Counted from the stretch's first letter, positions 2,803-64,000 are shown. The stretch: DNA of 64,000 nucleotides from a bacterium (GCA_043771175.1 JAYVHO010000008.1:5124-69123); one strand, 5' to 3'. Program-made: numbers and translations. Notes: a model not told the origin generated them from the sequence alone.

Positions 2803-2811
2803 TGCTACGAT
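2803..2811 (+). promoter_or_regulatory. Extended -10 box (tgctacgat), 6 nt upstream of ATG 2818
   Basis: TGn + TACGAT; same geometry as about 18 other starts in the window. Confidence 0.5.
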
Positions 2812-2817
2812 TTCTAA

Positions 2818-3144
2818 ATGAAAGATTTTGATGCGTGGAATATAATCAAAAAAAAGTATGATGAAAAAGATAGAGAAATAATCAAAGTATTTTGTCATGA
2901 GCGAGAGATTTGGTGGATTTCATTAGGGTTGAATATAGGTGATGAAGAAGATGGTAAAGGAGCTTTGTTTGAAAGACCAATATTAGTTATAAAAAAATTT
3001 AACAATAATATATTTTGGGGATGTTCACTTTCAACAAAAATTAAAGACCAAAATAAATACTATCATAAGATTGATACTAAGGAAGGAATTCGATCGGTAA
3101 TAATTTCTCAGTTGCGATTGTATGATACTAAGAGAAAAATTTGA
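2818..3144 (+). CDS. PemK/MazF-family toxin-like protein; the C-terminus appears frameshifted
   Basis: 'REIWWISLGLNIGDEEDGKGALFERPILVIKKFN...FWGCSLSTK...SQLRLYDTKR' resembles MazF/PemK-fold proteins. The missing C-terminal helix reads in the +1 frame (3143-3199). Confidence 0.6.
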   Translation: MKDFDAWNIIKKKYDEKDREIIKVFCHEREIWWISLGLNIGDEEDGKGALFERPILVIKKFNNNIFWGCSLSTKIKDQNKYYHKIDTKEGIRSVIISQLRLYDTKRKI

Positions 3145-3335
3145 TACAATAGAAATTGAAAAATTTAAGCAAATAAAAACAGCAATTAAAAAATTACTGT
3201 AATCATTTTCCCCGGCAGATTGCTCTGCTGAAAACCCGAAGGCATTTGTACTAATTATGTTACCAAATAAAAATAGATTGTCAATAAAAAACTTAATCTC
3301 TGTAAAAAATACTATAATTTTTTTAATTATTACCA

Positions 3336-3470
3336 TTCGTCATCCCGCAATTGCCATTTGTTACCTCACTATTTTTGCGTCATTCCTATGTTGCTTTTGT
3401 TATCTCAATATTGTTTCCGTCATTCAACTGTTGTTTACGTCATCTCGCTTTTCAGCGGGATGACGGACAT
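3336..3470 (+). repeat. GTCATCCCG mosaic repeat, locus B (four tandem degenerate units ending in an 11-bp hairpin)
   Basis: Units start at 3336, 3377, 3416 and 3437. The last is cgtcatctcgc-ttttca-gcgggatgacg. The ORF-track MurG N-terminal extension merely translates these repeats. Confidence 0.85.
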
Positions 3471-3479
3471 GAGACCAAA

Positions 3480-3488
3480 TGCTATAAT
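3480..3488 (+). promoter_or_regulatory. Extended -10 box (tgctataat), 6 nt upstream of the murG ATG
   Basis: TGcTATAAT at 3480-3488; ATG at 3495. Confidence 0.6.
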
Positions 3489-3494
3489 ATTCCT

Positions 3495-4625: not shown

Positions 4626-4647
4626 TAGAAGTGGTATAATACTATTC

Positions 4648-6545: not shown

Positions 6546-6588
6546 ATATAAACATATTGTAACATGGGTGTTGTGGTATAATTTTTTG

Positions 6589-8367: not shown

Positions 8368-8408
8368 AACTTTTTTCTTTATAAGAAATTTGCTATACTA
8401 CTACCATT

Positions 8409-11703: not shown

Positions 11704-11750
11704 AAAAGTAAGTATATCAAAAAATAGCAAATGTGATATAGTAATTGTAT

Positions 11751-13058
11751 ATGAAAACAGCAAGCTCTGATGGAGCAGCAGGAACGCAAGATATATTGGT
11801 TTCTTCTGCTCGTCTCAAAAAACAACTTATCGATACTATTTCGCAAGTTGCCAATCATCATGGGTTTGACTACATCGAAACTCCTATTTTAGAAAATATA
11901 GAAACATTAAAATCTGCGGAAAGTGACTTTAGGATTTTTTATGCATTAACGGGTGCTGATGACGCGTGGGATACGGGACTTCGATATGACCTTACGGTTC
12001 CTCTTGCTCGAATTGTTACAAAGTATTGGCCAGAACTCCCAAAACCTTTTAAGCGATATCAGTATGGAGAAGTGTTTAGGGGAGAAAAGCCACAAAAGGG
12101 CAGATATCGTCACTTTACACAATTTGATCTGGATATTGTAGGAACGAAAAATATTGATGCGGATATTGGACTTTTTATGTTGGCTCGTAGCACGTTTGAT
12201 CAAATCAACCTTGGAATTATTTCAACATTTCATATTAACTCAAGAAATTTCTTTACGGCACTGCAAGAAGTTCTTGGTATTGCCTCAGAAAAATTAACGG
12301 AACTGGTAAAACTTTTTGATAAATCAGAAAAAATTACTAAAGAAGAGTTTACTTCAGAGCTTGCAATGTTGGTCACTGATAGTAATAGTCAAGAAATTTG
12401 TATAAAGCTACTTGAAATTATTCCAACGTCAGAATTTGCTATGATGCTTGATACTGTTAAAACAAGTTCTCTTTACACAGATCTTCTTGAAGAATTTACT
12501 GCCGTTAAAGACGCACTAGACAATCAAGATGCCGTAACAAAATATGTTTTTAATCCCATGATTGCACGAGGATTTGGGTATTACACGGGCATGGTATGTG
12601 AAATGAAAGTAGAGGGATTCTCTTTTTCAGTATTAGGAGGTGGACGTTACGACAATTTAACAGAAAAATTCTCTCCACAGAATTTCCCCGCAACAGGGAT
12701 ATCTTTTGGAATTGATAGAATTCTTTTGGTGTTATCTGAACTTGGTGTATCGGTAAAAAGCACCCACGATAAAAAAATAGTGATTGGGTGTCTAGACGAA
12801 ACAGCAAAAAAATACACTTATTTAACACTTTTAAATATTTCAAAAATATTATCAAAAGACGACAGCATAGAAATGTACGTGGCTGATGCCGTTGATGCAA
12901 AATCAGTTCTAATGTATTCATTATCAAAACAGGCAACACATATGGTTATTATTGGTGAAAATGAAATGCGATCTGCTACCGTAACGATAAAAAATTTAAT
13001 CACCAAAGAACAAGCCACTATAACAGCAGATATGGTAGAAAATTACTTAAAATCATAA
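11751..13058 (+). CDS. hisS: Histidine--tRNA ligase
   Basis: 'RYQYGEVFRGEKPQKGRYRHFTQFDLDIVG', 'GGGRYDNL'. tgatatagt at 11734-11742. Confidence 0.85.
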   Translation: MKTASSDGAAGTQDILVSSARLKKQLIDTISQVANHHGFDYIETPILENIETLKSAESDFRIFYALTGADDAWDTGLRYDLTVPLARIVTKYWPELPKPFKRYQYGEVFRGEKPQKGRYRHFTQFDLDIVGTKNIDADIGLFMLARSTFDQINLGIISTFHINSRNFFTALQEVLGIASEKLTELVKLFDKSEKITKEEFTSELAMLVTDSNSQEICIKLLEIIPTSEFAMMLDTVKTSSLYTDLLEEFTAVKDALDNQDAVTKYVFNPMIARGFGYYTGMVCEMKVEGFSFSVLGGGRYDNLTEKFSPQNFPATGISFGIDRILLVLSELGVSVKSTHDKKIVIGCLDETAKKYTYLTLLNISKILSKDDSIEMYVADAVDAKSVLMYSLSKQATHMVIIGENEMRSATVTIKNLITKEQATITADMVENYLKS

Positions 13059-13072
13059 GGTATACTATATTC

Positions 13073-13450
13073 ATGAACAGTATTGTATTTTTTGCAAAAT
13101 TGTTGCTTGGTGTATCAGTTGCACATGCACAATCAACGTTGCCTCCACAATTCACGATGCCAAAACTCGGAAATATGTTGTGTCCGGATAGTACTAAAGT
13201 ATGTGCGTTTGACTCATTGCCTGATTTTATAAATATGATTTTAAAATTTATTGTTGATGCAGGGACACCTATTGTAGCTATTGCCTTTATTTGGACAGGG
13301 CTTAAGTATGTTTTGGCTCAAGGTAATCCTGGAAAATTAACAGAAGCTCATAGAACTGCAAAATATACATTGATTGGCGCGGCTCTTATCTTGGGATCAT
13401 TTGTTATCACTAAAGTAATCACTGCCACGGTAGGTGATATCATTAATTAA
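13073..13450 (+). CDS. Pilin-like small membrane protein 1 (VirB2/TrbC-type: signal peptide plus 2 TM helices)
   Basis: '...GVSVAHA|QS', TM 'IVAIAFIWTGLKYV', loop 'AQGNPGKLTEAHR', TM 'LIGAALILGSFVI'. Confidence 0.6.
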   Translation: MNSIVFFAKLLLGVSVAHAQSTLPPQFTMPKLGNMLCPDSTKVCAFDSLPDFINMILKFIVDAGTPIVAIAFIWTGLKYVLAQGNPGKLTEAHRTAKYTLIGAALILGSFVITKVITATVGDIIN

Positions 13451-13451
13451 T

Positions 13452-13799
13452 ATGGAACAGACATTGATGTATCTACAAAGTGTTCTAGGGGTCAGCACTG
13501 CTTATGCAGCAGGATCAATTAAGTCTTTTGGTGATGCGGTAAATTTTGTGATTTCTCTTATAAAAGACACAGCAATTCCTGTTCTTATTTCTGGCGCCGT
13601 AATTATTTTCTTCTTTGGTGTTATCAAAACGTTTATTTATGAAACCAATCCAGAAACCATTGCAAAAAATAAATATTATATGATATGGGGGCTGGGTGCC
13701 ATTTTTGTGATGCTGTCTATTTGGGGAATTATCAATGTTATTTCTTCATCTACGGGAATCGGAATAGGAGGAGATATTACTATTCCACAGTTTAAATAA
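13452..13799 (+). CDS. Pilin-like small membrane protein 2
   Basis: 'GVSTAYA|AG', two TM helices, tail 'STGIGIGGDITIPQFK'. tgatatcat at 13435-13443 supports ATG 13452. Confidence 0.6.
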   Translation: MEQTLMYLQSVLGVSTAYAAGSIKSFGDAVNFVISLIKDTAIPVLISGAVIIFFFGVIKTFIYETNPETIAKNKYYMIWGLGAIFVMLSIWGIINVISSSTGIGIGGDITIPQFK

Positions 13800-13867
13800 T
13801 CATGAGGTACACCAAAGGTGTATAATGATGAAGTATCAATTAATTACTGGATATTTAATTACGAACT

Positions 13868-14248
13868 ATGAAGACTTTACAAAAAATAGGAATCTATCTG
13901 ATGTCATCGGTTTGGCTTTTGCCAACCTTTGCACATGCTCAGGTTATTCCAGGAGGGCAATCGATATGGCAGATTGGAGCACCAATTCTTACCTATATCA
14001 TGAATAATCTTATTCCAATTTTGGTAACCGTTGCGGTTATTATATTGATAGTAAATATTATCCGATTTATCATTGGAGCAAAAGAAGGCAAAGTTGATAA
14101 TGCTGCAGCAGGAAAACAACTTGCATGGAGTATTGGAGGACTATTTATCATTCTTGCAATTTGGGGAATTATTGCCGTAATCTCAAAAACTCTTGGAATT
14201 GGAGTTGGAGGAGCACCAATAGATTTGCCACGCGTTCCATTTCCATAA
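13868..14248 (+). CDS. Pilin-like small membrane protein 3
   Basis: 'LLPTFAHA|QV', two TM helices, tail 'KTLGIGVGGAPIDLPRVPFP'; closest paralogue of protein 2. Confidence 0.6.
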   Translation: MKTLQKIGIYLMSSVWLLPTFAHAQVIPGGQSIWQIGAPILTYIMNNLIPILVTVAVIILIVNIIRFIIGAKEGKVDNAAAGKQLAWSIGGLFIILAIWGIIAVISKTLGIGVGGAPIDLPRVPFP

Positions 14249-14266
14249 AGTGAATATCTCTTTTTT

Positions 14267-14291
14267 AAAAACAGCAGAAATGCTGTTTTTT
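14267..14291 (+). terminator. Rho-independent terminator inside the pilin-like array
   Basis: aaaaacagca-gaaa-tgctgtttttt. The same RNA-sense sequence recurs after tRNA-Gln (47601-47626). Confidence 0.75.
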
Positions 14292-14311
14292 GTTTGGTGT
14301 ATAATTTATAT

Positions 14312-14632
14312 ATGATGATTGATTTTCTTCAAACTATTACTCTGTCAGCAGAGGCGCAAACTGCAGCAGCGGGTGCAAACAAAGTCATTAATAAATTATT
14401 TACGGGAATTATTAATCCTGCTATTAAACTCATGTTTGTAGTAGGTATGGTTTATTTTTTCTATTCAATTGTTCGCAGAGTAATTTGGGAACAAGGCAAG
14501 AGTGATTCCTTTGGTTGGAAAGATGGTCGCGGAGGAGTATTGGTATGGGGGATTCTTGGAATTTTTATTATGGTGGCGGCAGCGGGGTTGGTGGGTGTTT
14601 TAAAAACAGGAATTCTTTCGATAAGTAAATAG
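14312..14632 (+). CDS. Pilin-like small membrane protein 4
   Basis: 'TLSAEA|QT', two TM helices. tgtataat at 14298-14305 supports ATG 14312. Confidence 0.55.
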   Translation: MMIDFLQTITLSAEAQTAAAGANKVINKLFTGIINPAIKLMFVVGMVYFFYSIVRRVIWEQGKSDSFGWKDGRGGVLVWGILGIFIMVAAAGLVGVLKTGILSISK

Positions 14633-14636
14633 ATAT

Positions 14637-14900
14637 ATGTTGTTTGATCTTATTCTCAAAACTCCTGAATTTGCAAACAGTGCGCTGGGATTTTTTACCA
14701 GTTATATATTATTACCATTTATAGGAGTAGTTGCAGGATTTTCTTTTGTGGTATTTGTCTATGGTTATGTTAAATATATACACTTGGGTGAATACTACAC
14801 CAAAGGGGAAGATGAAGGAAAAGAACTGATGGGTAAAGGTATTTTATTCCTTGGTATTTGTGCATTTATTTTTATTATTTCTTATTATTTTCTCGCATAA
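14637..14900 (+). CDS. Small 2-TM membrane protein 5 (most divergent member of the array)
   Basis: 87 aa, two hydrophobic helices separated by the charged loop 'GEYYTKGEDEGKE'. Confidence 0.5.
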   Translation: MLFDLILKTPEFANSALGFFTSYILLPFIGVVAGFSFVVFVYGYVKYIHLGEYYTKGEDEGKELMGKGILFLGICAFIFIISYYFLA

Positions 14901-15715: not shown

Positions 15716-15741
15716 CTTCTTAAAGATGATATACTTTTACT

Positions 15742-18156: not shown

Positions 18157-19137
18157 TTACTGTGCTTTCCATAGTACTTTAGGAATTTTACTTAAGCTGA
18201 GCTTGTTATAATTTCTCATGCAATCTGGATCATAGAATATTCTCTCGTCTTTGATAAAATCAAGTATACTTTTTGAAAATGAAGAACAGATGCTTATCAT
18301 CGATAGACGTTGATAAATATGTTCAGTTTCAGATACGTCATGCTCTACTTCGGTAAAACTGACCAAGATTTCTTGAGGTGCAGCAGAAGTAGCTTGAATA
18401 ATTTGCTGAAGGGTATAATCCGTCATGCAGCAAGGACAAGCATTTGAAAAATATAAAAGAGGATTATGGTTATGAATAATATTTGCACAAACTGCTTCTT
18501 TTCCTTGTATTGACATAAAAACATTATTTTTTTGAGTATTTACAACGGCTTCAAGTACTTGAGAAGAAATCATTCCTTTTTTATATGAAGCATCTTTAAG
18601 ATAGTTATAGATATTTTTGACAGGAAAGAAATATTCTGAAAAAAAATCCAGCGGAGTTTCCTCGTTAATATATGTTTCTGTTAAGATTCCTACTCGATAA
18701 TAATAGGGAAAATCATGATTTGGTTTGAATACTGCTAATTCATGAGAAAGTAATCCAAACGCATATGCAGACTTTACTCCAATAATTTTATTATCTTCAT
18801 GCGAAATAAGATTAAAAACATCAGAAATTTGAAGTAAGTATGCATCTAAAAGATCCTTGCCACTTCTTATTATGGTAGGAGAAAAATTTGCAATATGTAC
18901 AACATTTTCAAAATACAAAGGAGGTAAAGCAACTTCAAAGCTTTTTAAATATTTTATCTTATTAAGAAGCTGCTTTTTTTCTTTAGGTAATAGGTGTTTA
19001 AATATACCAAGGATACTTTCAATACTTTCTGATGATTTATCATCAAACGTAAGACCGGCGGTCAGTAGTTCATAGAGTGAGTCAGTGAATCCGAAAGATT
19101 CAACATCAAGGGAGGAGTTATAAATAATTTTTGCCAT
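18157..19137 (-). CDS. Hypothetical protein (orphan, about 327 aa)
   Basis: Long ORF with no motif I recognise. ATG at 'MAKIIYN' is preferred over the TTG at 19206, because TTGACA-17-TATCTT (19206-19178, minus strand) lies upstream of it. Confidence 0.5.
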   Translation of the reverse strand: MAKIIYNSSLDVESFGFTDSLYELLTAGLTFDDKSSESIESILGIFKHLLPKEKKQLLNKIKYLKSFEVALPPLYFENVVHIANFSPTIIRSGKDLLDAYLLQISDVFNLISHEDNKIIGVKSAYAFGLLSHELAVFKPNHDFPYYYRVGILTETYINEETPLDFFSEYFFPVKNIYNYLKDASYKKGMISSQVLEAVVNTQKNNVFMSIQGKEAVCANIIHNHNPLLYFSNACPCCMTDYTLQQIIQATSAAPQEILVSFTEVEHDVSETEHIYQRLSMISICSSFSKSILDFIKDERIFYDPDCMRNYNKLSLSKIPKVLWKAQ

Positions 19138-19493
19138 ATCTTGAGTTAGATTAAGTTTTTTAAATAAATTCTTCTTTAAGATACATTTTTTATCTATCAA
19201 TGTCAAACATATTGTGCGACATTAACTTACAAAAGATAAAAGTAGGCTTTATGAAAAATATACAAAAGATAGGTGTGACATTGTGTGCGCTAGTGTGTAT
19301 AAGGTGAATATTAACTGCATAATAATGATCAGCAAACTATGTTTAAAGTCTGAAGTTATAGTATTCTAAAAACCACAATAAACTATGGTTTATAATCTTT
19401 CTTTGTCGCAAAAGATATATTGTACGACATTGATATATCTTTAAAACAATTATGTTATCCACAGTTGAATATTTTTTATAACAATTACCTATT

Positions 19494-19527
19494 TAAAAAA
19501 ATAACCCAGAAAATTTCTGAGTTATTT
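19494..19527 (-). terminator. Rho-independent terminator of the 19579-19986 gene
   Basis: Minus-strand sense: ataactcaga...tctgggttat followed by a T7 run. Confidence 0.65.
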
Positions 19528-19578
19528 ATTGTTAACTAAGTAAAAATATCAAATTACGTGTAATTGATACACCACATA

Positions 19579-19986
19579 TTACCCAAATCGTAAGTATGTA
19601 AAGTATATACTGCACAATTCAAGCATGACAAAGAATCCGGCAATTACCCCACTGCTTACTTCATGAACACTAGTCTTTCCACTAACAGATAATAATTCAT
19701 AGATTTTTTTCTTTTTTGATCGATAGCCAGCTAGAGACACTTTTTCAATCAGCCACACCACCATACTTATTACAAGCCCTATGCAAACACCCGTATACAA
19801 CATGACAATAATGTCAGGATAGTGTTGGGTATGAGGATCACCTGCCATCATTTTTGTAAATGAATTCCAAAAAAAATTATATAATTTCTTTGAAAAGATT
19901 TCAGAAATAAATGGAGCAAGAACCCCAAATACTAAAATATAAATAGCAGCGGGTACTTGAGAAAATACTTTGATAATATTCTTCAT
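19579..19986 (-). CDS. Hypothetical membrane protein (orphan)
   Basis: 135 aa with 3-4 hydrophobic helices; ATG start; terminator downstream. Confidence 0.5.
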   Translation of the reverse strand: MKNIIKVFSQVPAAIYILVFGVLAPFISEIFSKKLYNFFWNSFTKMMAGDPHTQHYPDIIVMLYTGVCIGLVISMVVWLIEKVSLAGYRSKKKKIYELLSVSGKTSVHEVSSGVIAGFFVMLELCSIYFTYLRFG

Positions 19987-20189
19987 TTTTATAATTTAAA
20001 TAAGATGATGTTAATTATAGTACATTATATAAAATATATGTCAATAAATAATATTATTATGATGTATGTCAAAAAAAGTAATCCACAGCTTGAATACTCT
20101 CCCCTTGCAATTATTGTGGAATTTGTAATAATGCACTCAATCAGTTTAATGATAAATAGCTGATATTTATAATCTAATTAAGTATAAGC

Positions 20190-20465
20190 ATGACAACACT
20201 TGACCTTGAACAATTAATGGTAATTTCATTCTCATCATCAAGAATTTCACTTGGAGAAGATGACGATGAGGTTGATGAAGAAGAAAGCCCTTCTTTATAT
20301 GACGAAGACGCTCCAAAGAAAAAAATAAACCCATTTGAACTTGTTGATGAAGACAACAAAGATGGTGGCACAGCAGAGGGAGACGACGACGTTGACCCTT
20401 TGGTTGGTGATGAAGATGAAGAAGACATTGAAGAAATGGATGGATTCTCTGAAGTTGAGGAATAA
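20190..20465 (+). CDS. Hyper-acidic D/E-rich small protein
   Basis: 'GEDDDEVDEEE...GDDDVDPLVGDEDEEDIEEMDGFSEVEE'; ATG start; terminator at 20487-20511. Confidence 0.55.
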   Translation: MTTLDLEQLMVISFSSSRISLGEDDDEVDEEESPSLYDEDAPKKKINPFELVDEDNKDGGTAEGDDDVDPLVGDEDEEDIEEMDGFSEVEE

Positions 20466-20486
20466 TTACAAATTCAAAACTTATAT

Positions 20487-20511
20487 AAAAATACGCTTAC
20501 GCGTATTTTTA
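20487..20511 (+). terminator. Rho-independent terminator
   Basis: aaaaatacgc-ttac-gcgtattttt. Confidence 0.75.
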
Positions 20512-20533
20512 TATTGTGTAAAATTCTCTACAT

Positions 20534-20561
20534 AAAAATCACATACTAATATGTGATTTTT
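20534..20561. terminator. Palindromic terminator serving the K/A-rich gene on the minus strand
   Basis: aaaaatcacata-ctaa-tatgtgattttt. Confidence 0.7.
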
Positions 20562-20570
20562 ATGAAAAGA

Positions 20571-20729
20571 TTATTTTTTTGAAACCTTTTTAGTTGCTTT
20601 TTTAACTGCTTTCTTTACTGCTTTTTTAGGAGCGACTTTTTTAACAGCCTTTTTAACAACTTTCTTTACTGCTTTTTTAATTGCTTTTTTAGGAGCAACT
20701 TTTTTAACAGCCTTTTTTGCGATAGCCAT
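20571..20729 (-). CDS. 52-aa lysine/alanine-rich, histone-H1-like basic protein (not in the ORF track)
   Basis: Hand translation: MAIAKKAVKKVAPKKAIKKAVKKVVKKAVKKVAPKKAVKKAVKKATKKVSKK*. ATG start, TAA stop, internal ~63-nt DNA duplication. Confidence 0.65.
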   Translation of the reverse strand: MAIAKKAVKKVAPKKAIKKAVKKVVKKAVKKVAPKKAVKKAVKKATKKVSKK

Positions 20730-21024
20730 ACGTGTACTTAGTGTTGAAAAACGAATAATAAATAAAATGAGATAAATATTATTGTTAGTGATTGGTTAGG
20801 GTCGACCGCATGAATAACATAAATGGTCGATACAAGCATTTACATTTCATGTATAGATATTGTATGAATAAATTGAGGTTCATACAATAGATAAGGCTGT
20901 GTATAACCATACTTCATTCTATCTTTTGCAATCGTTTTGCAAAAGATAGAATTATATTTATGATAGTAAGAAAAATTACTCCACCACTACATTCTTTTTA
21001 ATTATTAGTAAAAATTCAAAATCT

Positions 21025-21125
21025 CACCAAAACACTTCTCTCTAAACTCCATCCGGACGCAAGCGTTCCTATTCATACTTCTTTTATAAGTCCCGCAAGC
21101 ATGTTTAAGGAGAAGTGTTTTGGTG
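21025..21125. other. 101-nt long hairpin (candidate ncRNA or MITE-like element)
   Basis: The 23-nt arm caccaaaacacttctctctaaac pairs with gtttaaggagaagtgttttggtg (one mismatch, one G.U). The interior carries two cGCAAGc motifs. Confidence 0.4.
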
Positions 21126-21159
21126 GATTTTTACTTGTGTTGCAGAAAATCACTAAATA

Positions 21160-21168
21160 TGGTATTGT
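21160..21168 (+). promoter_or_regulatory. rpmA promoter, extended -10 (tggtattgt), with TTGCAG -35 at 21140-21145
   Basis: 17-nt spacer; about 30-nt leader to ATG 21200. Confidence 0.5.
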
Positions 21169-21199
21169 ATGAAAACATTAATCAATATTTTTCACCATT

Positions 21200-23232: not shown

Positions 23233-23503
23233 AAATATGTTTATAGAGGTGTTGATAATTTCCCAATAATTTATAGAGTATAAAATTACCACACCTGTGT
23301 TACAGCTAATATAATTGACCAATGTAGAAAAAGTAACATGTATCCTTTAAAAAATACCGAACTTGTTGTAAAACCGGCCTAGTATTGAAACACAGGCAAA
23401 ATAGCTAATATCCCAATGCTGGTAATAATATCATTAAAGAGTAAAAATGTCAAATAACCTCATGTATAAACAAAAAAACACGGTATATCTCTTATGATAA
23501 TTT

Positions 23504-24727: not shown

Positions 24728-24769
24728 GTTATTAAGTATATCATCTTTGTTAAATTATTTGGGTGTGAA

Positions 24770-26750: not shown

Positions 26751-26769
26751 ACCTATTAGTATATCAAAC

Positions 26770-27477: not shown

Positions 27478-27519
27478 ATAATACGATATAATCAGATTAT
27501 TGTAAATAATTACGAGATC

Positions 27520-27528
27520 TGATATAAT
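27520..27528 (+). promoter_or_regulatory. Extended -10 (tgatataat), 10 nt upstream of ATG 27539
   Basis: TGaTATAAT consensus. Confidence 0.55.
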
Positions 27529-28023: not shown

Positions 28024-28051
28024 AAAACGCATCAACTAGTTTGATGCGTTT
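28024..28051. terminator. Bidirectional terminator
   Basis: aaaacgcatcaa-ctag-ttgatgcgtttt. Confidence 0.75.
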
Positions 28052-28719: not shown

Positions 28720-28728
28720 ATTTTCTTG

Positions 28729-28802: not shown

Positions 28803-28868
28803 TTAGTGTTACTATAATATCACAAATTTAAAAAAATAAAAGCAAAATAAAAACCAGTTTCCTGGTTT

Positions 28869-29174: not shown

Positions 29175-29223
29175 GCTTTCAATAATAGCAACTAAGGTTC
29201 TAAATGTCAAATAGTATATCTTC

Positions 29224-38223: not shown

Positions 38224-38246
38224 AAGAAACGATTGTAACGTATTTT

Positions 38247-39083: not shown

Positions 39084-39090
39084 GATGTAA

Positions 39091-40353: not shown

Positions 40354-40388
40354 ATAAAAATTATTATATCACAATTGGCCCAATCCAG

Positions 40389-40419: not shown

Positions 40420-40459
40420 TTACTCGCAGATACAGCACAATATTATTACAATAGTCACT

Positions 40460-41320
40460 ATGGACAAAGAATTCCCAATTGATAATATTGCAAAACATAT
40501 ACTTCCAAATTACACAGCGGGATTTTTGCCAGGATTTCCCAAGGAAATTTCCTGTCGTGGCAATATTGATATTTTAAGCTCAGAACTTTTAATTACCATT
40601 GTGGGAACTCGTAAACCGAGTGATTATGGAATTCTCCTTATTGAAAAATTATTTGAAGTTCTTGCAAAACATCATAGGCGTATTACTACCATTTCTGGAC
40701 TTGCATTTGGCATAGATGCTCTTACTCATGAACTTAGCTTAAAATACCATATCCCAACGATTGCTATTCCTGGGTCGGGACTTCATGATGATGTTATTGG
40801 TCCACGGACAAATTTAAATATTGCACATCGTATTCTTAAAAATAACGGACTCCTCCTCTCTCCTTTTAGTGAAAAGGATACTTCACGTCCTTCAATGTTT
40901 CCTCAGCGCAATTTACTTATGGCTGCAATGTCAAATGTTGTTATTGTAATTGAGGCACTTACAAAATCAGGATCGCTCATTACAGCTCATGAGGCATTGT
41001 CGTATGGAAAACCTGTTTATGTATTTCCGGGATCGTTCTTTTCGCCACTTTCAGAGGGTTGTCATGAGTTAATTCAAAAAGGAGCTGAAGTTATGGTGAG
41101 CTTTGAATCATTTGTCGAGGATATGAATCTTAATAATAATCAAATGGAACTTGCGCTTTTAAGCGGTGTGCCAACTAATATTTGGGACTTGCCTCACTCA
41201 CTTTCAGAACTCTGTGAACACTTTAAAAAATCACCTCCTGAAATGCTTTCCGAGATCACACTTTTGGAATTAGATGGTGTGATAAAAAATATTGGTGGGA
41301 GATATCAAAAAGTAAAATGA
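40460..41320 (+). CDS. dprA: DNA processing protein DprA (Smf)
   Basis: 'VGTRKPSDYG', 'SGLAFGIDALTHE', 'RNLLMAAMS'. Confidence 0.85.
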   Translation: MDKEFPIDNIAKHILPNYTAGFLPGFPKEISCRGNIDILSSELLITIVGTRKPSDYGILLIEKLFEVLAKHHRRITTISGLAFGIDALTHELSLKYHIPTIAIPGSGLHDDVIGPRTNLNIAHRILKNNGLLLSPFSEKDTSRPSMFPQRNLLMAAMSNVVIVIEALTKSGSLITAHEALSYGKPVYVFPGSFFSPLSEGCHELIQKGAEVMVSFESFVEDMNLNNNQMELALLSGVPTNIWDLPHSLSELCEHFKKSPPEMLSEITLLELDGVIKNIGGRYQKVK

Positions 41321-41361
41321 GTTCTTTACTTTTAGCAAAAATATGGTATTGTTGTAACACT

Positions 41362-42048
41362 ATGCAAACCTACACCTACACAGGGACAGAACCTATTTAT
41401 AACAATGTTTTTTTGGCTGATTGTGGTGTGGCTTCACGCCGTGGAGCTGACAAATTAATTGAAGAAGGACTGGTAAGAATTAATGATGTCATTACCAAAA
41501 AAGGTCAAAAATTAGAACTTGGCGACACTATCACGGTAGATAAAGAAAAAATTGAATTCTCATATTTTGTATTTTATAAACCTCGTGGAACAGAAACAGG
41601 AATTCATAAAGGAATGCCAGGAATGCACCCTATTGGAAGACTCGATAAAGAGTCAGAAGGATTGCTTATTTACAGCGACGATCATCGTTTGGTTGACAAG
41701 CTTTTGAATCCAGAAAATCACACCACGAAAGAATATGAAGTGTGGTCTCAAGAACGAATATTGGACGAAGCAGAACAAAAACTTAAAAGAGGTTTGCGTT
41801 ATGGTGGTATCACCTATCGTGCTCCAAAATCTTTAATTATTGCACCATCACGAGATAAAATTACTATTATTTTAACAGAAGGTAAAAAACACGAAATTCG
41901 TAGAATGTTTGCTGCTGTAAAACTTACCGTAAAAAGACTCAAGAGAAATAAAATTGGAAACCTTGAATCTCCTACTTTACAACCGGGTGATTTTAAAAAA
42001 TTACGTGGCTCAGATTTAAAATATATTCAAGAAATTTTATCTAAATAA
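41362..42048 (+). CDS. Pseudouridine synthase (RsuA/RluB/RluF family) with S4 domain
   Basis: 'GRLDKESEGLLI', 'KKHEIRRM'. tggtattgt at 41344-41352 supports ATG 41362. Confidence 0.8.
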   Translation: MQTYTYTGTEPIYNNVFLADCGVASRRGADKLIEEGLVRINDVITKKGQKLELGDTITVDKEKIEFSYFVFYKPRGTETGIHKGMPGMHPIGRLDKESEGLLIYSDDHRLVDKLLNPENHTTKEYEVWSQERILDEAEQKLKRGLRYGGITYRAPKSLIIAPSRDKITIILTEGKKHEIRRMFAAVKLTVKRLKRNKIGNLESPTLQPGDFKKLRGSDLKYIQEILSK

Positions 42049-42104
42049 TTGATTTTATTGTTAAATGATATAAGATTGATGAAAATCTTTAAAATTCTAT
42101 ATTT

Positions 42105-42662: not shown

Positions 42663-43460
42663 CAAATTTTCAAACACACTTATTACTGCAAGGGGGCCAA
42701 CACCGCCTGGGACTGGTGTGTAGTATCCAGCAATATTATAACAACCTGGATCAATATCTCCCGTTAATTTTCCTTCTTGTTCGCTGGTTCCGCCGTCAAT
42801 TAAAAATACTCCTCGAGTAATCATGTCTTCTTTGATGATATGTGTTTTCCCAACACCAGAAATAATAATATCCGCATTTTTTAAAGACTCCACATATTCA
42901 TCTTGTGGGGTCTTTTCTGTAATAATTTTATAATACAAAGATTTTGATGCAAAATAACGTGAAACAGGCGCACCTACTAATGTTCCATTTCCAACAATAA
43001 CAATATGCTCTCCTTCAATATTATAAAATACCGAATCCAGAATATGTTGTACGGCTGCGGCAACGGGTGGAATTCTCTTTGTGGTTCCCTCATCAAATGC
43101 CAATAATGAATCATAAGAAAGTACATCAATATCTAAGTCATAGGGCACCATATTAACAATGGTTGGTGTATCGCACCAATGAGGAATAGGAAGCTGTAGC
43201 ACTATCCCATCAAAGTTTTGCGTGGTAAGTTCTGTCACAAATTCACATGCGGATGCCGTATTTTTTTCTCCTTCGTAAATAATAGTTTGTGCATGAACAC
43301 CAATTCTTGCTGCTACTTTTTTCTTCATTTCTACAAATTGTTCAACCGCAAAAGAGTGTTCAAAAATAACAAAACAAACACGTTTTTGAGGAGCGGATAA
43401 AAGCTCTGCTTTTATCCGCTCCTCAATCCCCTGTGCCAATTTTTTTCCATCTATTTTCAT
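42654..43460 (-). CDS. folD: Bifunctional methylenetetrahydrofolate dehydrogenase/cyclohydrolase
   Basis: 'MKIDGKKLAQ', 'YTPVPGGVGPLAV'. Confidence 0.85.
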   Translation of the reverse strand: MKIDGKKLAQGIEERIKAELLSAPQKRVCFVIFEHSFAVEQFVEMKKKVAARIGVHAQTIIYEGEKNTASACEFVTELTTQNFDGIVLQLPIPHWCDTPTIVNMVPYDLDIDVLSYDSLLAFDEGTTKRIPPVAAAVQHILDSVFYNIEGEHIVIVGNGTLVGAPVSRYFASKSLYYKIITEKTPQDEYVESLKNADIIISGVGKTHIIKEDMITRGVFLIDGGTSEQEGKLTGDIDPGCYNIAGYYTPVPGGVGPLAVISVFENLLR

Positions 43461-45296: not shown

Positions 45297-45323
45297 ATAT
45301 ATAAGTATACTCCTACTTTTGAA

Positions 45324-45773: not shown

Positions 45774-45835
45774 AAGATTATTGTAGCACTTGGAATTGAC
45801 ATAGCCGATTTCTGAGGTTGACACAGTAAGAGCAC

Positions 45836-47502: not shown

Positions 47503-47600
47503 AGATGTCTATTATACCTTTCTATATCAAGACAACAATATATTATGACTTTTTATTCCCCTTTAAAGAACGGGAATAGTTCTTGTATCTTTACTCATAA

Positions 47601-47626
47601 AAAAACAGCATTTCTGCTGTTTTTTT
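47601..47626 (-). terminator. Terminator after tRNA-Gln
   Basis: The reverse complement equals the 14267-14291 terminator (acagca-gaaa-tgctgt plus U-run). Confidence 0.75.
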
Positions 47627-47730: not shown

Positions 47731-48085
47731 ATGTGATACTAATATACCCTATTTTTCAAAAAAAATAAAGCGATGGATAATATTAAATATCCATGGCTTT
47801 ATCTGTGTATTTATTGTATTTTTTGTTTATACACACGCCATTACTTCTAGCGCCTGTTCTTGTGTTTGGCTATCCCAAATTCCATCTGACTTTGAAACAC
47901 AATATTTGTTGTTGACATATCGCAAACATGCCTTGAGTCTTGCAAGAAAATGTCTGAACATGAATAGCTTGATTTTAGCATGGCACAATTATCGACTTTC
48001 AGGATATATATAAACTGTGCAAAGATCATGAAGATACAAAAAGAGTCGACCGCGTGATCGACTCTATATTTAAACTCTTTGATTG

Positions 48086-51004: not shown

Positions 51005-51039
51005 CACAAAACACCACACATTTCTGTGTGGTGTTTTGT
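51005..51039. repeat. Long hairpin family, copy 1 (also a terminator position)
   Basis: acaaaacaccacaca-tttc-tgtgtggtgttttgt, a perfect 15-bp stem. Confidence 0.8.
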
Positions 51040-51616: not shown

Positions 51617-51664
51617 AACTGAAGAGTAACAACTCAAAGATATTATGTCAATTATAAAATCAAA

Positions 51665-51694
51665 AAAACACCATACAATTCTATATGGTGTTTT
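51665..51694. repeat. Long hairpin family, copy 2
   Basis: aaaacaccata-caattcta-tatggtgtttt. Confidence 0.7.
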
Positions 51695-53017: not shown

Positions 53018-53031
53018 GATTAAATATTATC

Positions 53032-53064
53032 ACAAAACACCACATATTCTGTGTGGTGTTTTGT
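53032..53064. repeat. Long hairpin family, copy 3
   Basis: acaaaacaccaca-tattc-tgtgtggtgttttgt; near-identical to copy 1. Confidence 0.8.
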
Positions 53065-53138
53065 ATTTGGTTTTATTGTGTTGCGTCGCCAGAGCGCGAC
53101 ATCCTGCAAAAATATAGTCGCTTCGTTTCTTGTTTTTG

Positions 53139-53211
53139 TGGACCCTAACGGATTCGAACCGTTGACCTCCTCAGTGCAAATGAGGCGCTCTACCAACTAA
53201 GCTAAGGGCCC
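53139..53211 (-). tRNA. tRNA-Ala (TGC)
   Basis: Hand fold: gggccct/agggtcc with G3:U70, anticodon loop ttTGCac, T-loop ttcgaat; 73 nt; no CCA. Confidence 0.9.
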
Positions 53212-55763: not shown

Positions 55764-55785
55764 AGGGTTATTAGTATATCACAGA

Positions 55786-60394: not shown

Positions 60395-60474
60395 GTGTAT
60401 AAGTATAGCGTTTTTTACAGAAAATGGTAGTATTAATTGAGTATAAACCTTAAACAATTTAACTCATATTACAC

Positions 60475-60645: not shown

Positions 60646-60678
60646 AAGACCGACAAGCTGCGCTTGTCGGTCTTTTTT
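60646..60678. terminator. Bidirectional terminator (obg and the small ORF)
   Basis: agaccgacaagc-tgc-gcttgtcggtct flanked by A5/T6 runs. Confidence 0.8.
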
Positions 60679-61666
60679 ATTCTGTTATTGTTTTTACTTC
60701 CACACTTTTTACAATGGTCTGTAAAACTTTTTTTACTAAAGCATCATCATATAAAGAAAGAACTGCAACATCTTTTTTAATTTTTTTACCAAGTTCTTTT
60801 GCAATCTTTACAGCGTCTTCGGTAAGTTCATCAATCTTTGTTATAACCACCATTTCGTCTTTTTCAAGAAGATTTTTATCAAATGCGCCAAGTTCGTTTC
60901 TAATTGCATTATATGCAACCACTAATTCATCAACATTCTCTTTTGCTTCTATAAAATGAACCAAAACGCGTGTTCTTTGAATATGCTTTAAAAATTTATG
61001 ACCCAAACCTTTCCCTTCTGAAGCACCTTCAATAAGTCCTGGAATATCTGCAAATACGTAGTCAAAATACACGCCTAAGTTTGGCTCAATAGTAGTGAAG
61101 GGATAGTTGGCAACTTTTCCTTGTGAAGCCGTGGCAACATTTAAAAATGAAGTTTTTCCCGCATTTGGAAATCCAATGATTCCAACATCTGCAATCATTC
61201 GAAGTTCGCAGGTAATGGTTCCTTCTTCACCTTTTTTACCAGGTGTACATTCTAATGGTGTTACATTGTTTGAACGCTTAAAGTGTTCATTTCCAAAACC
61301 TCCGTTTCCTCCCGTTAAAATTTGGAATTTTTGTCCCGTTTCAAGGAGATCATAAATCTCACCTGTTGAAATATTCTTAACCAGCGTTCCTCTAGGAACT
61401 TTTATAATTAAATCATCTCCCGTTGCACCATGTTTACCCATATTTCCACCAGGTCCACCTGACATTGCTTGTTGCAATTTAATGTTTCGGTAATGTTCAA
61501 GATATGAAAGATCAGCAATGGCTTCCAAATATACATCCCCTCCTTTTCCTCCGTCACCACCACCTGGTCCACACAAAGGCTTGAACTTCTCTCGTCTCCA
61601 GCGAACAACACCATCACCTCCGTTTCCGGCTTTAATTTTTAGCGTTACATTATCTACAAATGACAT
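60677..61666 (-). CDS. obg: GTPase Obg/CgtA
   Basis: 'FVDNVTLKIKAGNGGDGVV', 'GFPNAGKTS', 'DIPGLIEGA'. Confidence 0.9.
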   Translation of the reverse strand: MSFVDNVTLKIKAGNGGDGVVRWRREKFKPLCGPGGGDGGKGGDVYLEAIADLSYLEHYRNIKLQQAMSGGPGGNMGKHGATGDDLIIKVPRGTLVKNISTGEIYDLLETGQKFQILTGGNGGFGNEHFKRSNNVTPLECTPGKKGEEGTITCELRMIADVGIIGFPNAGKTSFLNVATASQGKVANYPFTTIEPNLGVYFDYVFADIPGLIEGASEGKGLGHKFLKHIQRTRVLVHFIEAKENVDELVVAYNAIRNELGAFDKNLLEKDEMVVITKIDELTEDAVKIAKELGKKIKKDVAVLSLYDDALVKKVLQTIVKSVEVKTITE

Positions 61667-61712
61667 AATGTACTATCTTGACATTTTTTTGACTAAATGT
61701 CAAAAAAACTCC

Positions 61713-62825
61713 TTAAACTCTAAACTCAATCACATCACCATCTTGTACTATGTATGTCTTTCCTTCCACACGAAGCTTGCCTTTATTACGGGCTTCTGTA
61801 AGTGATCCGCATTCTATAAAGTCAGCAAATGCAACAACCTCTGCGCGGATGAATTTCTTTTCAAAATCTGTGTGAATTGCTGCAGCAGCCACTGGTGCGG
61901 ATGATCCAATCTTTACCGTCCATGCACGAGTCTCCATCTCTCCGGTTGTTAAATATGACATAAGTCCCAGTGCTTTATACCCAGCGTCAATAAGTCCGTC
62001 CAGTCCAACTCCTTCAACTTGCAAATCCGTTCGCATTTCATCGCGTTCTTCTTCAGAAAAAGATTTCAATTCTCCTTCACTTTGTGCATCAATCAAAATC
62101 ACTGATGCATGCAAAATTTCATGCGCATACGCCACGAACTCATCATATAATACTTTGTTAGTGTCATTTAAATTCTTTCCCGTGCTTTTTCTGTTTCCTG
62201 CAACAATCATTTTTTTGTTAGTAAGAAAATGCATCGCATATAAAAATCCTGGTTCAATATCACCTTCTGTGGTAAACGTAAATGCAGGCTTACTCTCTAC
62301 AAGATGAGATTTAAGACGTTTTAAACACGCAGATTCTGCCATAGCAACTTCATCACCTCGTCTTACATCTTTTTCAATATTTGAAATTCTTTTTTCAAGC
62401 GTTTGTAAGTCTGCCAAAATAAGCTCCATCATAATTACTTCCAAATCTCGTTTTGGGTGTGGTGTTCCATATACATGAGTAATATCTGTAGTTGCGTTAT
62501 TTTCAAATAGTCGTACTACGTGAACAATTGCGTCAGTCTCACGTATATGAGAAAGAAATTGGTTCCCTAATCCTGCCCCCGTTGATGCACCTTCAACAAG
62601 TCCTGCAATATCAACAAATTCCACTACTGCTGGAATTATTTTCTGTGAACCAGAAAGTTTTGAAAGAACTTGCAAGCGCCCATCTTTAACGGGAACAATC
62701 CCCACTGACGGATCAATCGTACAAAATGGGTAATTCTCTGCTGGTACTGACTTTTCTGTTAATGCATTAAATAATGTTGATTTTCCAACATTAGGCAAAC
62801 CCACAATTCCAAGTGATATATTCAT
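61713..62825 (-). CDS. ychF: Ribosome-binding ATPase YchF
   Basis: 'LGIVGLPNVGKSTLFNALT', 'FVDIAGLV', TGS-like C-terminus. Confidence 0.9.
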   Translation of the reverse strand: MNISLGIVGLPNVGKSTLFNALTEKSVPAENYPFCTIDPSVGIVPVKDGRLQVLSKLSGSQKIIPAVVEFVDIAGLVEGASTGAGLGNQFLSHIRETDAIVHVVRLFENNATTDITHVYGTPHPKRDLEVIMMELILADLQTLEKRISNIEKDVRRGDEVAMAESACLKRLKSHLVESKPAFTFTTEGDIEPGFLYAMHFLTNKKMIVAGNRKSTGKNLNDTNKVLYDEFVAYAHEILHASVILIDAQSEGELKSFSEEERDEMRTDLQVEGVGLDGLIDAGYKALGLMSYLTTGEMETRAWTVKIGSSAPVAAAAIHTDFEKKFIRAEVVAFADFIECGSLTEARNKGKLRVEGKTYIVQDGDVIEFRV

Positions 62826-62871
62826 GTGTACTACTGTACACAATTTTTTATGTAAATTCAAGAAATCTATT

Positions 62872-62880
62872 TGATATAAT
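62872..62880 (+). promoter_or_regulatory. Extended -10 (tgatataat), 7 nt upstream of ATG 62888
   Basis: TGaTATAAT. Confidence 0.55.
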
Positions 62881-62887
62881 TATATGT

Positions 62888-64000
62888 ATGAAATATTTTA
62901 CTGCTGCCCTGTCATTTTTAACTTTATTATTAACAGTTCCTCATAATTCTTTATTTGTTTTTGCACAAGAAATTACTTCTACCACAGAAACATCAGAAGA
63001 TAGTTCCAAAGTTTACGTGATTTCTTATGATGCATCAGATATTATATTGGCTGATGTTGGTTTGGGTTCAAAAATTATGTCCTTGGCATCTTCACAAAAT
63101 CTTGATGAAACCATTGGAGCAGTAATAGAAAATACCGGTGCAGACATCACCAGAAATTTTGAAAATTTAAACACTATAGCAGCATCAATGACCGAAGCAG
63201 AAAAAAATACGCTGATGGAACAGATTCCAGGAATTTCTATTAGAGAACCAAAAATGTACCAGTTAACACTTTCCACTAAGGCTTCCTATGTTCAAGCTAC
63301 ACAATTTGCAGCAGATATGGGATATACCGGTTCAGGACAATACGTGGCAGTGATAGATTCTGGAATTGATGATACCACCAGCATGTTGACTGGTAAGCTT
63401 AATAGTGGATATGAGGCATGCTTTTCTAATTCTGGACTACTTACTCCGCAATATGTAAATCCATCTATTACCACTAATGGTGGTGGATACTATGCATGCC
63501 CTACAAATATTGGAACACTTCCAACACGCACCTCAACGTCGCCACTTACATTTTCACCAGCAACAGTAATGAATGCATCACAGCCTCTTAACACTTATTC
63601 ATCAACTATTGGAAATGATATTAATCACGGTACAAACGTAGCACAAATTGCCGTAGGAAGTCATATTACTTCACCCTCAAATATTACAGGAATTGCGCCC
63701 GGGGCAAACCTCGTTGGTGTCAATGTATCCACCTTTGTTGATAGCAGAAATCCTGTTGCTGGAATCCCTACAGGTACGGGTACGGGATATGAAGTTAGTA
63801 TTGATACTACTCCAGATTATATTGCTATTAGTGATGTTGATTTAATAGAGGGCCTTCGGTACGTGCAGTATCTAAAAGACACTTTAGGTGTCCCTATTGC
63901 TGCAGTAAATATGAGTCTTTCTGATAATGAGGCATATGATGATCAGAATGATTGTGACACTCGTGTCGTTCCTGCTCAAAACATTGACAACACTCTTGTT
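62888..64000 (+). CDS. Secreted subtilisin-like serine protease (S8) with signal peptide and propeptide; 3' end outside the window (not in the ORF track)
   Basis: Hand translation is open for 371 codons to the window edge: 'MKYFTAALSFLTLLLTVP...', 'YVAVIDSGID' (Asp), 'NHGTNVAQIAVG' (His). Confidence 0.8.
   Translation, partial: MKYFTAALSFLTLLLTVPHNSLFVFAQEITSTTETSEDSSKVYVISYDASDIILADVGLGSKIMSLASSQNLDETIGAVIENTGADITRNFENLNTIAASMTEAEKNTLMEQIPGISIREPKMYQLTLSTKASYVQATQFAADMGYTGSGQYVAVIDSGIDDTTSMLTGKLNSGYEACFSNSGLLTPQYVNPSITTNGGGYYACPTNIGTLPTRTSTSPLTFSPATVMNASQPLNTYSSTIGNDINHGTNVAQIAVGSHITSPSNITGIAPGANLVGVNVSTFVDSRNPVAGIPTGTGTGYEVSIDTTPDYIAISDVDLIEGLRYVQYLKDTLGVPIAAVNMSLSDNEAYDDQNDCDTRVVPAQNIDNTLV

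Follow-up and report, generated by a model that had tools for sequence, protein, structure and literature searches.

Extended −10 elements placed directly before start codons suggest leaderless, Shine-Dalgarno-free mRNAs in a Parcubacteria-type bacterium

Many genes in the stretch of DNA analyzed here (64,000 nucleotides, nt, of JAYVHO010000008.1; hereafter, the window) carry a TATAAT-like hexamer that ends 6–10 nt before an ATG start codon, frequently with TG one base upstream. This association between the box and the ATG is real. The boxes are probably (at about 0.8) extended −10 promoters that would produce leaderless messenger RNAs (mRNAs) without Shine-Dalgarno (SD) sequences, with tightly coupled genes being translated by reinitiation.

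Position of the box relative to start codons

The box was compared with 69 independent gene calls taken from the annotation of the source metagenome scaffold, BUSI22-1_SAMN19433714_METAG-scaffold_21 (197 kb; source sample ENA ERZ28573538 / SAMN19433714; position 1 of the window is position 102725 of the scaffold record, with the orientation reversed). In 34 of the 69 genes, TATAAT with at most one mismatch ends 6–9 nt before the start, while ∼5 would be expected (∼1.25 per offset elsewhere upstream; Poisson p ∼1e-17). The most common gap is 7 nt (11 genes), followed by 6 nt (9), 8 nt (6), 9 nt (6), and 10 nt (2). The motif TGNTANNNT ends at gaps of 6–10 nt in 19 of 69 genes, compared to ∼0.23 per offset elsewhere. 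The initial annotation had proposed such a placement of −10 motifs from 18 examples, and the enrichment 6–10 nt before starts is seen both in the window and in ten related loci. All 18 of its 8–9-mers were verified with respect to coordinates, strand, ATG position, and gap. Thirteen of the 18 starts coincide exactly with gene calls, while those at 14312, 27477, 41362, and 45773 differ. For the RsmI-like gene, the sequence of the proposed box TGATTATAT (27486–27494, start 27477) is present, but the −11 A is missing, and TATTAT before 27471 is the better reading. The called starts 41317 and 45839, upstream of two proposed internal starts, overlap the end of the upstream gene by 4 nt. At least 13 further boxes were found; the additional boxed starts are 13073, 24727, 26750, 33091, 36623, 38223, 39083, 40460, 42105, 45296, 47502, 51616, 53017, 55763, and 60394, plus that of YchF (Table 1).

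Two procedures are independent of the gene caller. In a search that started from the motif, without gene calls and with an open reading frame (ORF) of at least 80 amino acids (aa) required, 14 of the 21 strict TG.TA[TC]A[AC]T sites on both strands of the 64 kb precede an ORF-opening ATG by 5–11 nt, and each of four offset control windows yielded 0. When the start of each ORF of at least 100 aa was set at its first ATG, the box was found in 29 of 59 ORFs, compared to 8 at the control offset. Therefore, the signal is positional and is not a product of start-codon choice. The sequence TGNTATAAT as such is not over-represented, with 9 copies in the window and 6.9 expected; still, 6 of the 9 copies are placed 6–10 nt before a called start (p ∼3e-14).

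Such a total at the chance level is what one would expect if random TATAAT-like words in AT-rich intergenic DNA (34% GC; the window varies from 31 to 37%) had been combined with a choice of starts fitted to the motif. The same could be said of generic promoter scans, which are also at the chance level, and of one or two boxes of the initial annotation that are weak or disagree with gene calls (27486, 41344, 45780). Nevertheless, an artefact of this kind is hardly credible: the same AT-rich upstream regions show no peak at other offsets, and both procedures that do not use the gene caller recover the signal. Moreover, the peak is present in relatives with 44–47% GC, where the control offset gives 0, and is absent in AT-rich controls from outside the Candidate Phyla Radiation (CPR), Clostridium (30% GC) and Flavobacteriales (25–26% GC). 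The starts are also backed by conserved N-termini and by profile coverage.

Three perfect TGNTATAAT sites lie away from gene starts (18204–18212, +; 36996–37004, +; 42735–42743, −), two of them antisense within genes. They may be chance occurrences, as ∼7 are expected overall, or antisense or internal promoters.

Start codons and Shine-Dalgarno sequences

According to the initial annotation, the box also picks the correct start among alternatives, and protein conservation agrees with this. All relatives share the SerRS N-terminus MLDIKF, and profiles of MurG, HisS, ParB, and the ABC exporter cover the box-defined proteins from their first residues. In YchF, a miscall at TTG 62843 is corrected to the boxed ATG 62825, yielding the canonical N-terminus MNISLGIVGLPNVGKST. 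The YchF gene (61713–62825, −), whose own start is thus preceded by a start-proximal box, encodes a protein that is conserved in CPR and has been described as a regulator of leaderless-mRNA translation (PMC12641178).

ATG accounts for 67 of the 69 called starts; both non-ATG calls are without a box, and all boxed genes have an ATG start. Position −1 is a T in 46 of 69 genes, which places a pyrimidine(−1)/purine(+1) step right at the ATG. T(−1)A(+1) is the preferred pyrimidine/purine context of transcription start sites (TSSs).

The lack of SD sequences noted in the initial annotation extends to the whole gene set. GGAG, GAGG, and AGGA occur in the region −20 to −3 of 2, 0, and 1 of the 69 genes, respectively, that is, below control windows. 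Upstream of starts, the canonical anti-SD is predicted to pair less strongly (−0.68 kcal/mol) than in controls (−1.28 and −1.04), and SD-like pairing of −4.4 kcal/mol or stronger is seen in 4 of 69 genes, fewer than in control windows. No SD signal was found in any class of the 69 genes, including leadered and operon-internal ones. An alternative SD matching the 16S tail of relatives (AAGAA or AAAAGAAAA, with the alternative anti-SD UUUUCUUUU) is not enriched upstream of either boxed or unboxed genes in the window, and a compensating alternative SD was rejected.

Promoter character of the box

To characterize the box, 36 hexamers were selected by the hexamer score alone, ignoring TG. TG is found at −15/−14 in 17 of them (47%), compared to 7.3% of all equally scoring hexamers in the window (∼6-fold; p ∼1e-10). 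T is present at −34 in 23 of 36, while other −35 matches are near background, which suggests a vestigial −35 TTG at the 17-bp spacing. Full TTGACA-17 promoters next to an ATG were found twice, before rpsP (ribosomal protein S16) and the gene at 51616. The same type of box precedes two untranslated genes, 11 nt (tRNA-Ile) and 10 nt (tRNA-Gln) before the mature 5′ ends.

The surroundings of the boxes are also informative. Terminator-like hairpins are enriched about two-fold in two of three 20-kb stretches (22 vs. 10.4 and 23 vs. 9.2 in shuffles) and number 13 vs. 9.5 in the first one. A terminator, a box, and an ATG fall within 13–47 nt at 14267–14312, 36684–36623, 53065–53017, and 51695–51616; at the first three of these sites, where the hairpin immediately precedes or overlaps the box, there is no room for another promoter. 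Divergent gene pairs with spacers of 43–51 bp have one box facing each direction. A box is present in 11–13 of 19 genes with an upstream neighbor that is transcribed from the opposite strand or falls outside the window, in 7 of 18 genes with a co-directional spacer exceeding 60 nt, and in 10 of 16 with a spacer of 13–60 nt. By contrast, only 2 of 16 genes that overlap the upstream gene or lie at most 12 nt from it are boxed, compared to 28 of 53 others (Fisher p = 0.0045). This depletion at coupled genes is predicted by promoters plus coupling, while a general ribosome site should not spare such genes.

These observations bear on whether TAnnnT could be an mRNA element, such as a non-SD ribosome-binding site or an AU-rich enhancer (“group B” of GeneMarkS-2), on leadered transcripts made from promoters further upstream. 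The motif does occur before genes located 1–26 nt downstream of a co-directional gene (13452, 4648, 15742, 26750, 39083), GeneMarkS-2 reads such spacing as a sign of a ribosome-binding site (PMC6028130), and SD-independent translation of leadered mRNAs is evident in the window (rpmA, DEAD helicase). We nevertheless consider this explanation very unlikely, given the sigma-specific features (invariant-type −11 A and −7 T, TG one base upstream with its 6-fold enrichment, the weak TTG −35 at 17 bp), the boxes before two untranslated tRNA genes, and those directly after or overlapping terminator hairpins. Nor does it account for the four-fold depletion before overlapping or tightly coupled genes, or for divergent spacers of 43–47 bp without any other possible promoter. 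The data speak for an extended −10 promoter of the sigma70 type and against a ribosome site.

In E. coli, transcription starts ∼7–9 bp after the −10 element. In leaderless genes of M. tuberculosis, the −10 box is located 6–8 nt before the start (GeneMarkS-2; PMC6028130). The gaps observed here, in the order of frequency 7, 6, 8, and 9 nt, therefore place the A of the ATG at the usual starting point of RNA polymerase. We infer the leaderless state from this promoter geometry, that is, the −10-to-ATG distance and T(−1)A(+1); the position of the TSS, the mode of translation, and the coupling are inferred as well.

The proposed arrangement is the following. The boxes would be sigma70-type extended −10 elements (TGnTAnnnT) with a weak or dispensable −35, placed so that RNA polymerase would start at the A of the ATG or within ∼3 nt of it. 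The resulting mRNAs would have neither a 5′ leader nor an SD, and their 5′-terminal AUG may be recognized directly by the 70S ribosome or by the 30S-IF2-fMet-tRNA complex. Most genes at least ∼13 nt away from the upstream neighbor would have their own promoter, often embedded in the 3′ end of the preceding gene, while overlapping or abutting genes (∼23%), mostly boxless, would be translated by termination-reinitiation coupling. The arrangement is probably common to related Parcubacteria and would fit the loss of the 16S anti-SD in a part of that group.

Leadered genes and longer transcripts

The initial annotation described the mRNAs as mostly leaderless. This appears to apply to ∼45–60% of genes, while ∼23% are tightly coupled and mostly boxless, and the rest are leadered. 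Its two exceptions were retained: rpmA has TGGTATTGT 31 nt upstream, and TTGACA-17-TATCTT ends 40 nt before the start of the gene at 19137. The DEAD-box helicase (ATG 23232) has a near-consensus promoter, TTGACA-17-TGATATTAT, at 23453–23425 (−) and a leader of ∼186 nt without an SD. Such a long leader in an otherwise leaderless context (region 23233–23503, −) may be regulatory.

Several observations weigh against the leaderless interpretation. A convincing box is present in only ∼45–60% of genes. At gaps of 8–10 nt, the TSS could sit 1–3 nt upstream of the ATG. The genes rpmA, 13868, 30958, and the DEAD helicase are clearly leadered and SD-free; therefore, a second SD-independent mechanism must exist, and in principle it could serve boxed genes too. 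Boxes embedded in upstream genes without an intervening terminator imply that read-through polycistronic transcripts are also made. A generic two-hexamer scan for −35/−10 gave counts not exceeding those in shuffles (93 vs. 93.5, 85 vs. 86.6, and 70 vs. 91.9); the enriched feature is the position of the extended −10 alone, not classical promoters. Among the relatives, loci L044, L048, and L049 have few start-proximal boxes and serS leaders of 10–40 nt. Finally, the evidence on the 16S tail (see below) comes from the fairly distant L053 and L054 (53% identity in SerRS), as the window has no 16S of its own.

Some of these points would also fit boxes that are true promoters while most protein is made from longer polycistronic or leadered transcripts, with leaderless mRNAs playing a minor role. 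Translation would then use another SD-independent route, such as S1 or standby binding to unstructured AU-rich RNA, or 70S scanning. This possibility draws on the many boxes inside or just after a co-directional upstream gene with no terminator between them, on SD-free leadered genes in the same window, and on leadered serS in some related lineages. It is unlikely, albeit less so than the other alternatives considered here. For the 19 genes with an opposite-strand or off-window neighbor, as well as for post-terminator genes, no upstream transcript could supply the mRNA, and yet the same box stands at the same distance, in 11–13 of the 19. In addition, T(−1)/A(+1) and the near-exclusive use of ATG fit a 5′-terminal AUG, and, were the leaderless product unimportant, selection would have no reason to keep the box at exactly 6–9 nt.

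Related genomes and the 16S rRNA tail

A close relative, locus L066 (39% GC), is syntenic with the window, and its SerRS is 88% identical, while no similarity of upstream DNA is recognizable by eye. Still, boxes are found in L066 6–8 nt before the orthologous starts of SerRS, the downstream POTRA-like gene, HolB, and a 185-aa protein, and also before SHMT. In HolB, the box precedes the conserved MSDVLYRK/MSEVLYRK. In SerRS of L066, TGCTATACT is located 8 nt before the conserved ATG, whereas the gene caller extended the protein by 12 codons.

More generally, in ten Parcubacteria loci (SerRS identity 44–88%, GC 39–50%) analyzed with the first-ATG rule, a box at gaps of 6–9 nt was found in 38 of 121 ORFs, compared to ∼8 expected (p ∼3e-14). 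No peak at 6–9 nt was seen in pooled non-CPR controls (Clostridium, Ruminococcus, Halanaerobium, and two Flavobacteriales loci). T at −1 is found in 55% of cases in the Parcubacteria loci and in 26% in the non-CPR controls. SD 4-mers were found in 6 of 11 control ORFs in Clostridium, 9 of 18 in Ruminococcus, 9 of 16 in Halanaerobium, and none in the two Flavobacteriales loci.

Two of the relatives, L053 and L054, provide the 3′ end of 16S rRNA. When aligned to the Rfam bacterial SSU model, both have GGAGUUUUCUUUUA in place of the bacterial consensus GGAUcACCUCCUUu; hence the CCUCC core has been lost. The tail in these loci is U-rich (GUUUUCUUUUA). The 16S gene (1–168 in L053 and 1643–3112 in L054) is followed by tRNAs and serS, with no 23S within the available sequence, and the rRNA genes thus appear to be unlinked. 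Across Parcubacteria, only 48% have a detectable anti-SD motif (Tsurumaki et al., 2022, RNA 28:1041; PMC9297842). SD helices are presumably not formed in those lacking it, and the route of initiation was not addressed (PMC9297842).

As to the organism itself, named SerRS homologs with 66–69% identity belong to the Patescibacteria group, Minisyncoccia, Paceibacterota, Kaiserbacteria, and Pacebacteria. When GTDB species representatives were scanned with HisRS, no match exceeded 34% identity (except for 41% in a single partial match); the distant matches, from Clostridium, Halanaerobium, and Flavobacteriales, were of no use for synteny and were reused as negative controls. Therefore, judging by these two proteins, the organism is an uncultured CPR bacterium of the Parcubacteria type, with a tiny genome and without a close sequenced representative. 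The window contains housekeeping genes and three tRNAs (Rfam and profile scans), and no rRNA genes were found in the 64 kb, the three tRNAs being the sole Rfam matches. A phage or plasmid origin was rejected, as the housekeeping genes include those for aminoacyl-tRNA synthetases, ribosomal proteins, MurG, PBP, GatB, and RRF.

Individual boxes

Table 1. Boxes at gene starts in the window. The gap is the number of nucleotides between the box and the indicated start codon or mature 5′ end.
Box	Coordinates	Strand	Gap (to)	Gene or product	Comment
TGCTACGAT (extended −10)	2803–2811	+	6 (ATG 2818)	MazF/PemK-like, 108 aa	start as in the gene call
TGCTATAAT	3480–3488	+	6 (ATG 3495)	MurG	profile aligns from residue 1, therefore upstream TTG 3351 not needed
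TGGTATAAT	4632–4640	+	7 (ATG 4648)	M23 peptidase	within 22-nt spacer after murG
TGTTACAAT	6556–6564	−	10 (ATG 6545)	methyltransferase	half of divergent back-to-back pair, 43-bp spacer
TGGTATAAT	6574–6582	+	6 (ATG 6589)	ABC exporter	other half of the 43-bp-spacer pair
TGCTATACT	8391–8399	+	9 (ATG 8409)	ParB/Noc-like	
TGATATACT	11711–11719	−	7 (ATG 11703)	RelA/SpoT	divergent pair, 47-bp spacer
TGATATAGT	11734–11742	+	8 (ATG 11751)	HisRS	divergent partner of RelA/SpoT box
aggTATACT	13058–13066	+	6 (ATG 13073)	T4SS-pilin-like	first residue of 9-mer is last base of hisS stop codon; hexamer in 14-nt spacer after hisS
TGATATCAT	13435–13443	+	8 (ATG 13452)		inside last codons of upstream gene (1-nt spacer)
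gTGTATAAT	14297–14305	+	6 (ATG 14312) or 9 (ATG 14315)		directly after terminator hairpin 14267–14290; called start 14315, ATGATG ambiguity
TGATATACT	15727–15735	+	6 (ATG 15742)	S49 peptidase	
TGATATACT	24735–24743	−	7 (ATG 24727)	S41 peptidase	
TGATATACT	26758–26766	−	7 (ATG 26750)		
TATTAT (27478–27483)	27478–27494	−	6 (called ATG 27471)	RsmI-like	start region; alternative hexamer
TGATATAAT	27520–27528	+	10 (ATG 27539)		
TGATATTAT	28814–28822	−	11 (mature 5′ end 28802)	tRNA-Ile	just after rpsP terminator hairpin; putative promoter of a non-coding gene
TTGACA-17-TGcTATTAT	29182–29210	−	7 (ATG 29174)	ribosomal protein S16 (rpsP)	full promoter
cgtTATACT	33098–33106	−	6 (ATG 33091)		
aggTATAAT	36631–36639	−	7 (ATG 36623)	HolB	directly after hairpin 36684–36652
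cgtTACAAT	38232–38240	−	8 (ATG 38223)	Dus	
tTGTATAAT	39090–39098	−	6 (ATG 39083)		overlaps serS 3′ end (7-nt spacer)
TGATATAAT	40363–40371	−	9 (ATG 40353)	SerRS	
tatTACAAT	40444–40452	+	7 (ATG 40460)	DprA	
TGGTATTGT	41344–41352	+	9 (ATG 41362)		internal to called gene 41317–42048; real internal start or chance
cttTAAAAT	42087–42095	+	9 (ATG 42105)		weaker box
gagTATACT	45304–45312	−	7 (ATG 45296)	META domain	
TGCTACAAT	45780–45788	−	6 (ATG 45773)		internal to gene called from GTG 45839
aggTATAAT	47511–47519	−	8 (ATG 47502)	APH/choline kinase-like	
gggTATATT	47741–47749	−	10 (mature 5′ end 47730)	tRNA-Gln	
TTGACA-17-TACTCT, TG before hexamer	51623–51654	−	6 (ATG 51616)		downstream of hairpin 51695–51664
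TGATAATAT (or TGTGATAAT)	53024–53032	−	6–8 (ATG 53017)	Ham1-like	overlaps 3′ arm of tRNA-Ala terminator hairpin 53065–53031
TGATATACT	55773–55781	−	9 (ATG 55763)	M50 peptidase	
cgcTATACT	60402–60410	−	7 (ATG 60394)	GatB	
tgTACAGT	62833–62840	−	7 (ATG 62825)	YchF	likely true start
TGATATAAT	62872–62880	+	7 (ATG 62888)	S8 peptidase, 1002 aa	runs off the window

Other features of the window

An identical 22-nt terminator-type hairpin, AACAGCAGAAATGCTGTTTTTT, occurs at 14270–14291 (+) and 47600–47621 (−), with zero chance matches expected; one copy lies before the 14312 promoter and the other downstream of tRNA-Gln. Similar bidirectional hairpins (ACAAAACACCACA...TGTGGTGTTTTGT) are found in intergenic regions at 51006–51039, 51665–51694, and 53032–53064, and could represent a terminator used repeatedly or a small repeat element.

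The genes for tRNA-Ile(GAU) (28728–28802) and tRNA-Ala(UGC) (53138–53211) are stand-alone, 24 kb apart, with no rRNA nearby. The usual place of these two tRNAs is the 16S–23S spacer. For tRNA-Ala, the nearest box, TGGTAACAT, is ∼58 nt upstream, unlike in the other two tRNAs. The called HhH-GPD glycosylase gene (28051–28764, −) overlaps tRNA-Ile (−) by 37 nt. The glycosylase more plausibly starts at ATG 28719 (MNTKLLKV...), 9 nt beyond the 3′ end of the tRNA; from there, the gene would be co-transcribed with tRNA-Ile and freed by tRNA processing.

The region 13073–14900 (+) contains five small genes (87–126 aa), at least two of them with T4SS-pilin/TrbC-like domains; several of the five are boxed individually, and a 4-nt spacer couples the last one. 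The region 19138–21199 has low coding density, with only tiny called ORFs (41–135 aa), and no Rfam match. The 470-bp gap before rpmA contains a hairpin with a 16-bp stem (20916–20952).

At the window ends, we found the C-terminal part of a 3408-aa protein with DUF2793 and the Peptidase_S74 intramolecular chaperone (1–2629, +) and the beginning of the 1002-aa S8 peptidase with a peptidoglycan (PG)-binding domain (62888–64000, +). Both are large surface or secreted proteins of the kind typical for episymbiotic CPR.

Discussion

The closest known counterpart is the leaderless type of Actinobacteria and Deinococcus-Thermus (“group C” of GeneMarkS-2; M. tuberculosis, C. glutamicum, D. deserti), where a −10 box precedes promoter-proximal starts by 6–8 nt, the TSS is the A of the AUG, leaderless genes have no SD, and the start codon is mainly AUG (PMC6028130). 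These genomes are mostly high-GC, retain SD on leadered and operon-internal genes, and typically have 25–50% of operons leaderless (PMC6028130). The window shares with them the −10 box near starts, the lack of SD at boxed genes, and AUG starts, and, if the promoter geometry is read correctly, the coincidence with the TSS. It differs in having no SD signal in any gene class, thus representing an SD-free variant, in boxes before most genes with a spacer of at least 13 nt, operon-internal positions included, in promoters of the TGn type with little −35, and in lower GC and the CPR/Parcubacteria lineage. On this sequence evidence, we would describe it as an SD-free form of a mechanism known from Actinobacteria and Deinococcus, occurring in a lineage new for it.

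Extended −10 (TGn) sigma70 promoters are known from galP1 of E. coli and are common in Bacillota and Mollicutes. The window boxes resemble them in having TG one base upstream of TAnnnT and a weak or dispensable −35; unlike promoters of this type elsewhere, normally followed by an SD-bearing leader, they abut the start codon. With the Bacteroidota “group B,” the window shares the absence of SD and AT-rich upstream regions. The group B motif, however, is an mRNA element before all genes, not a promoter (PMC6028130), whereas the box, with its TGn and −35 features, is also found before tRNAs and is less frequent at coupled genes, and the Flavobacteriales controls have no peak at 6–9 nt. In leaderless-dominant archaea (haloarchaea, Sulfolobus; “group D”), the majority of units are also leaderless and the SD has little or no role, but the promoter box is ∼26 nt upstream (PMC6028130), and the transcription and translation machinery is different.

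Parcubacteria without an anti-SD (PMC9297842) come from the same phylogenetic neighborhood. L053 and L054 have GGAGUUUUCUUUUA instead of the GGAUCACCUCCUUA tail. The term “leaderless” is not mentioned in that study, and promoter-adjacent leaderless starts, as suggested by the window, are offered here as an answer to how initiation may proceed. Our literature search, with incomplete coverage and hence a possible prior description, yielded no paper tying leaderless initiation to Patescibacteria, Parcubacteria, or Saccharibacteria; matches to “leaderless” came from reference lists or dealt with other taxa. A broader scenario, which we put forward tentatively and at slightly worse than even odds, is that the lineage gave up the SD/anti-SD interaction altogether, with most genes being transcribed as monocistronic leaderless mRNAs from per-gene extended −10 promoters, overlapping genes relying on reinitiation, and leaderless initiation being the default.

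For the roughly half of Parcubacteria reported to have lost the anti-SD, no mechanism of initiation was given (PMC9297842), and the start of transcription at the AUG would be a concrete and testable one. If so, SD-reliant gene callers would misplace starts in such metagenome-assembled genomes, as exemplified by YchF in the window and SerRS in L066, and operon predictions in CPR would need revision because nearly every gene would have its own promoter. Leaderless designs would then be advisable for expression constructs in the emerging CPR genetic systems. A deep-branching, low-GC lineage with reduced genomes would also have to be considered in the debate over an ancestral or a repeatedly derived origin of leaderless initiation. 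Finally, the broader scenario would explain how the reduced, anti-SD-less ribosome of CPR finds start codons, with leaderless initiation being the default rather than the mode of a large minority of genes.

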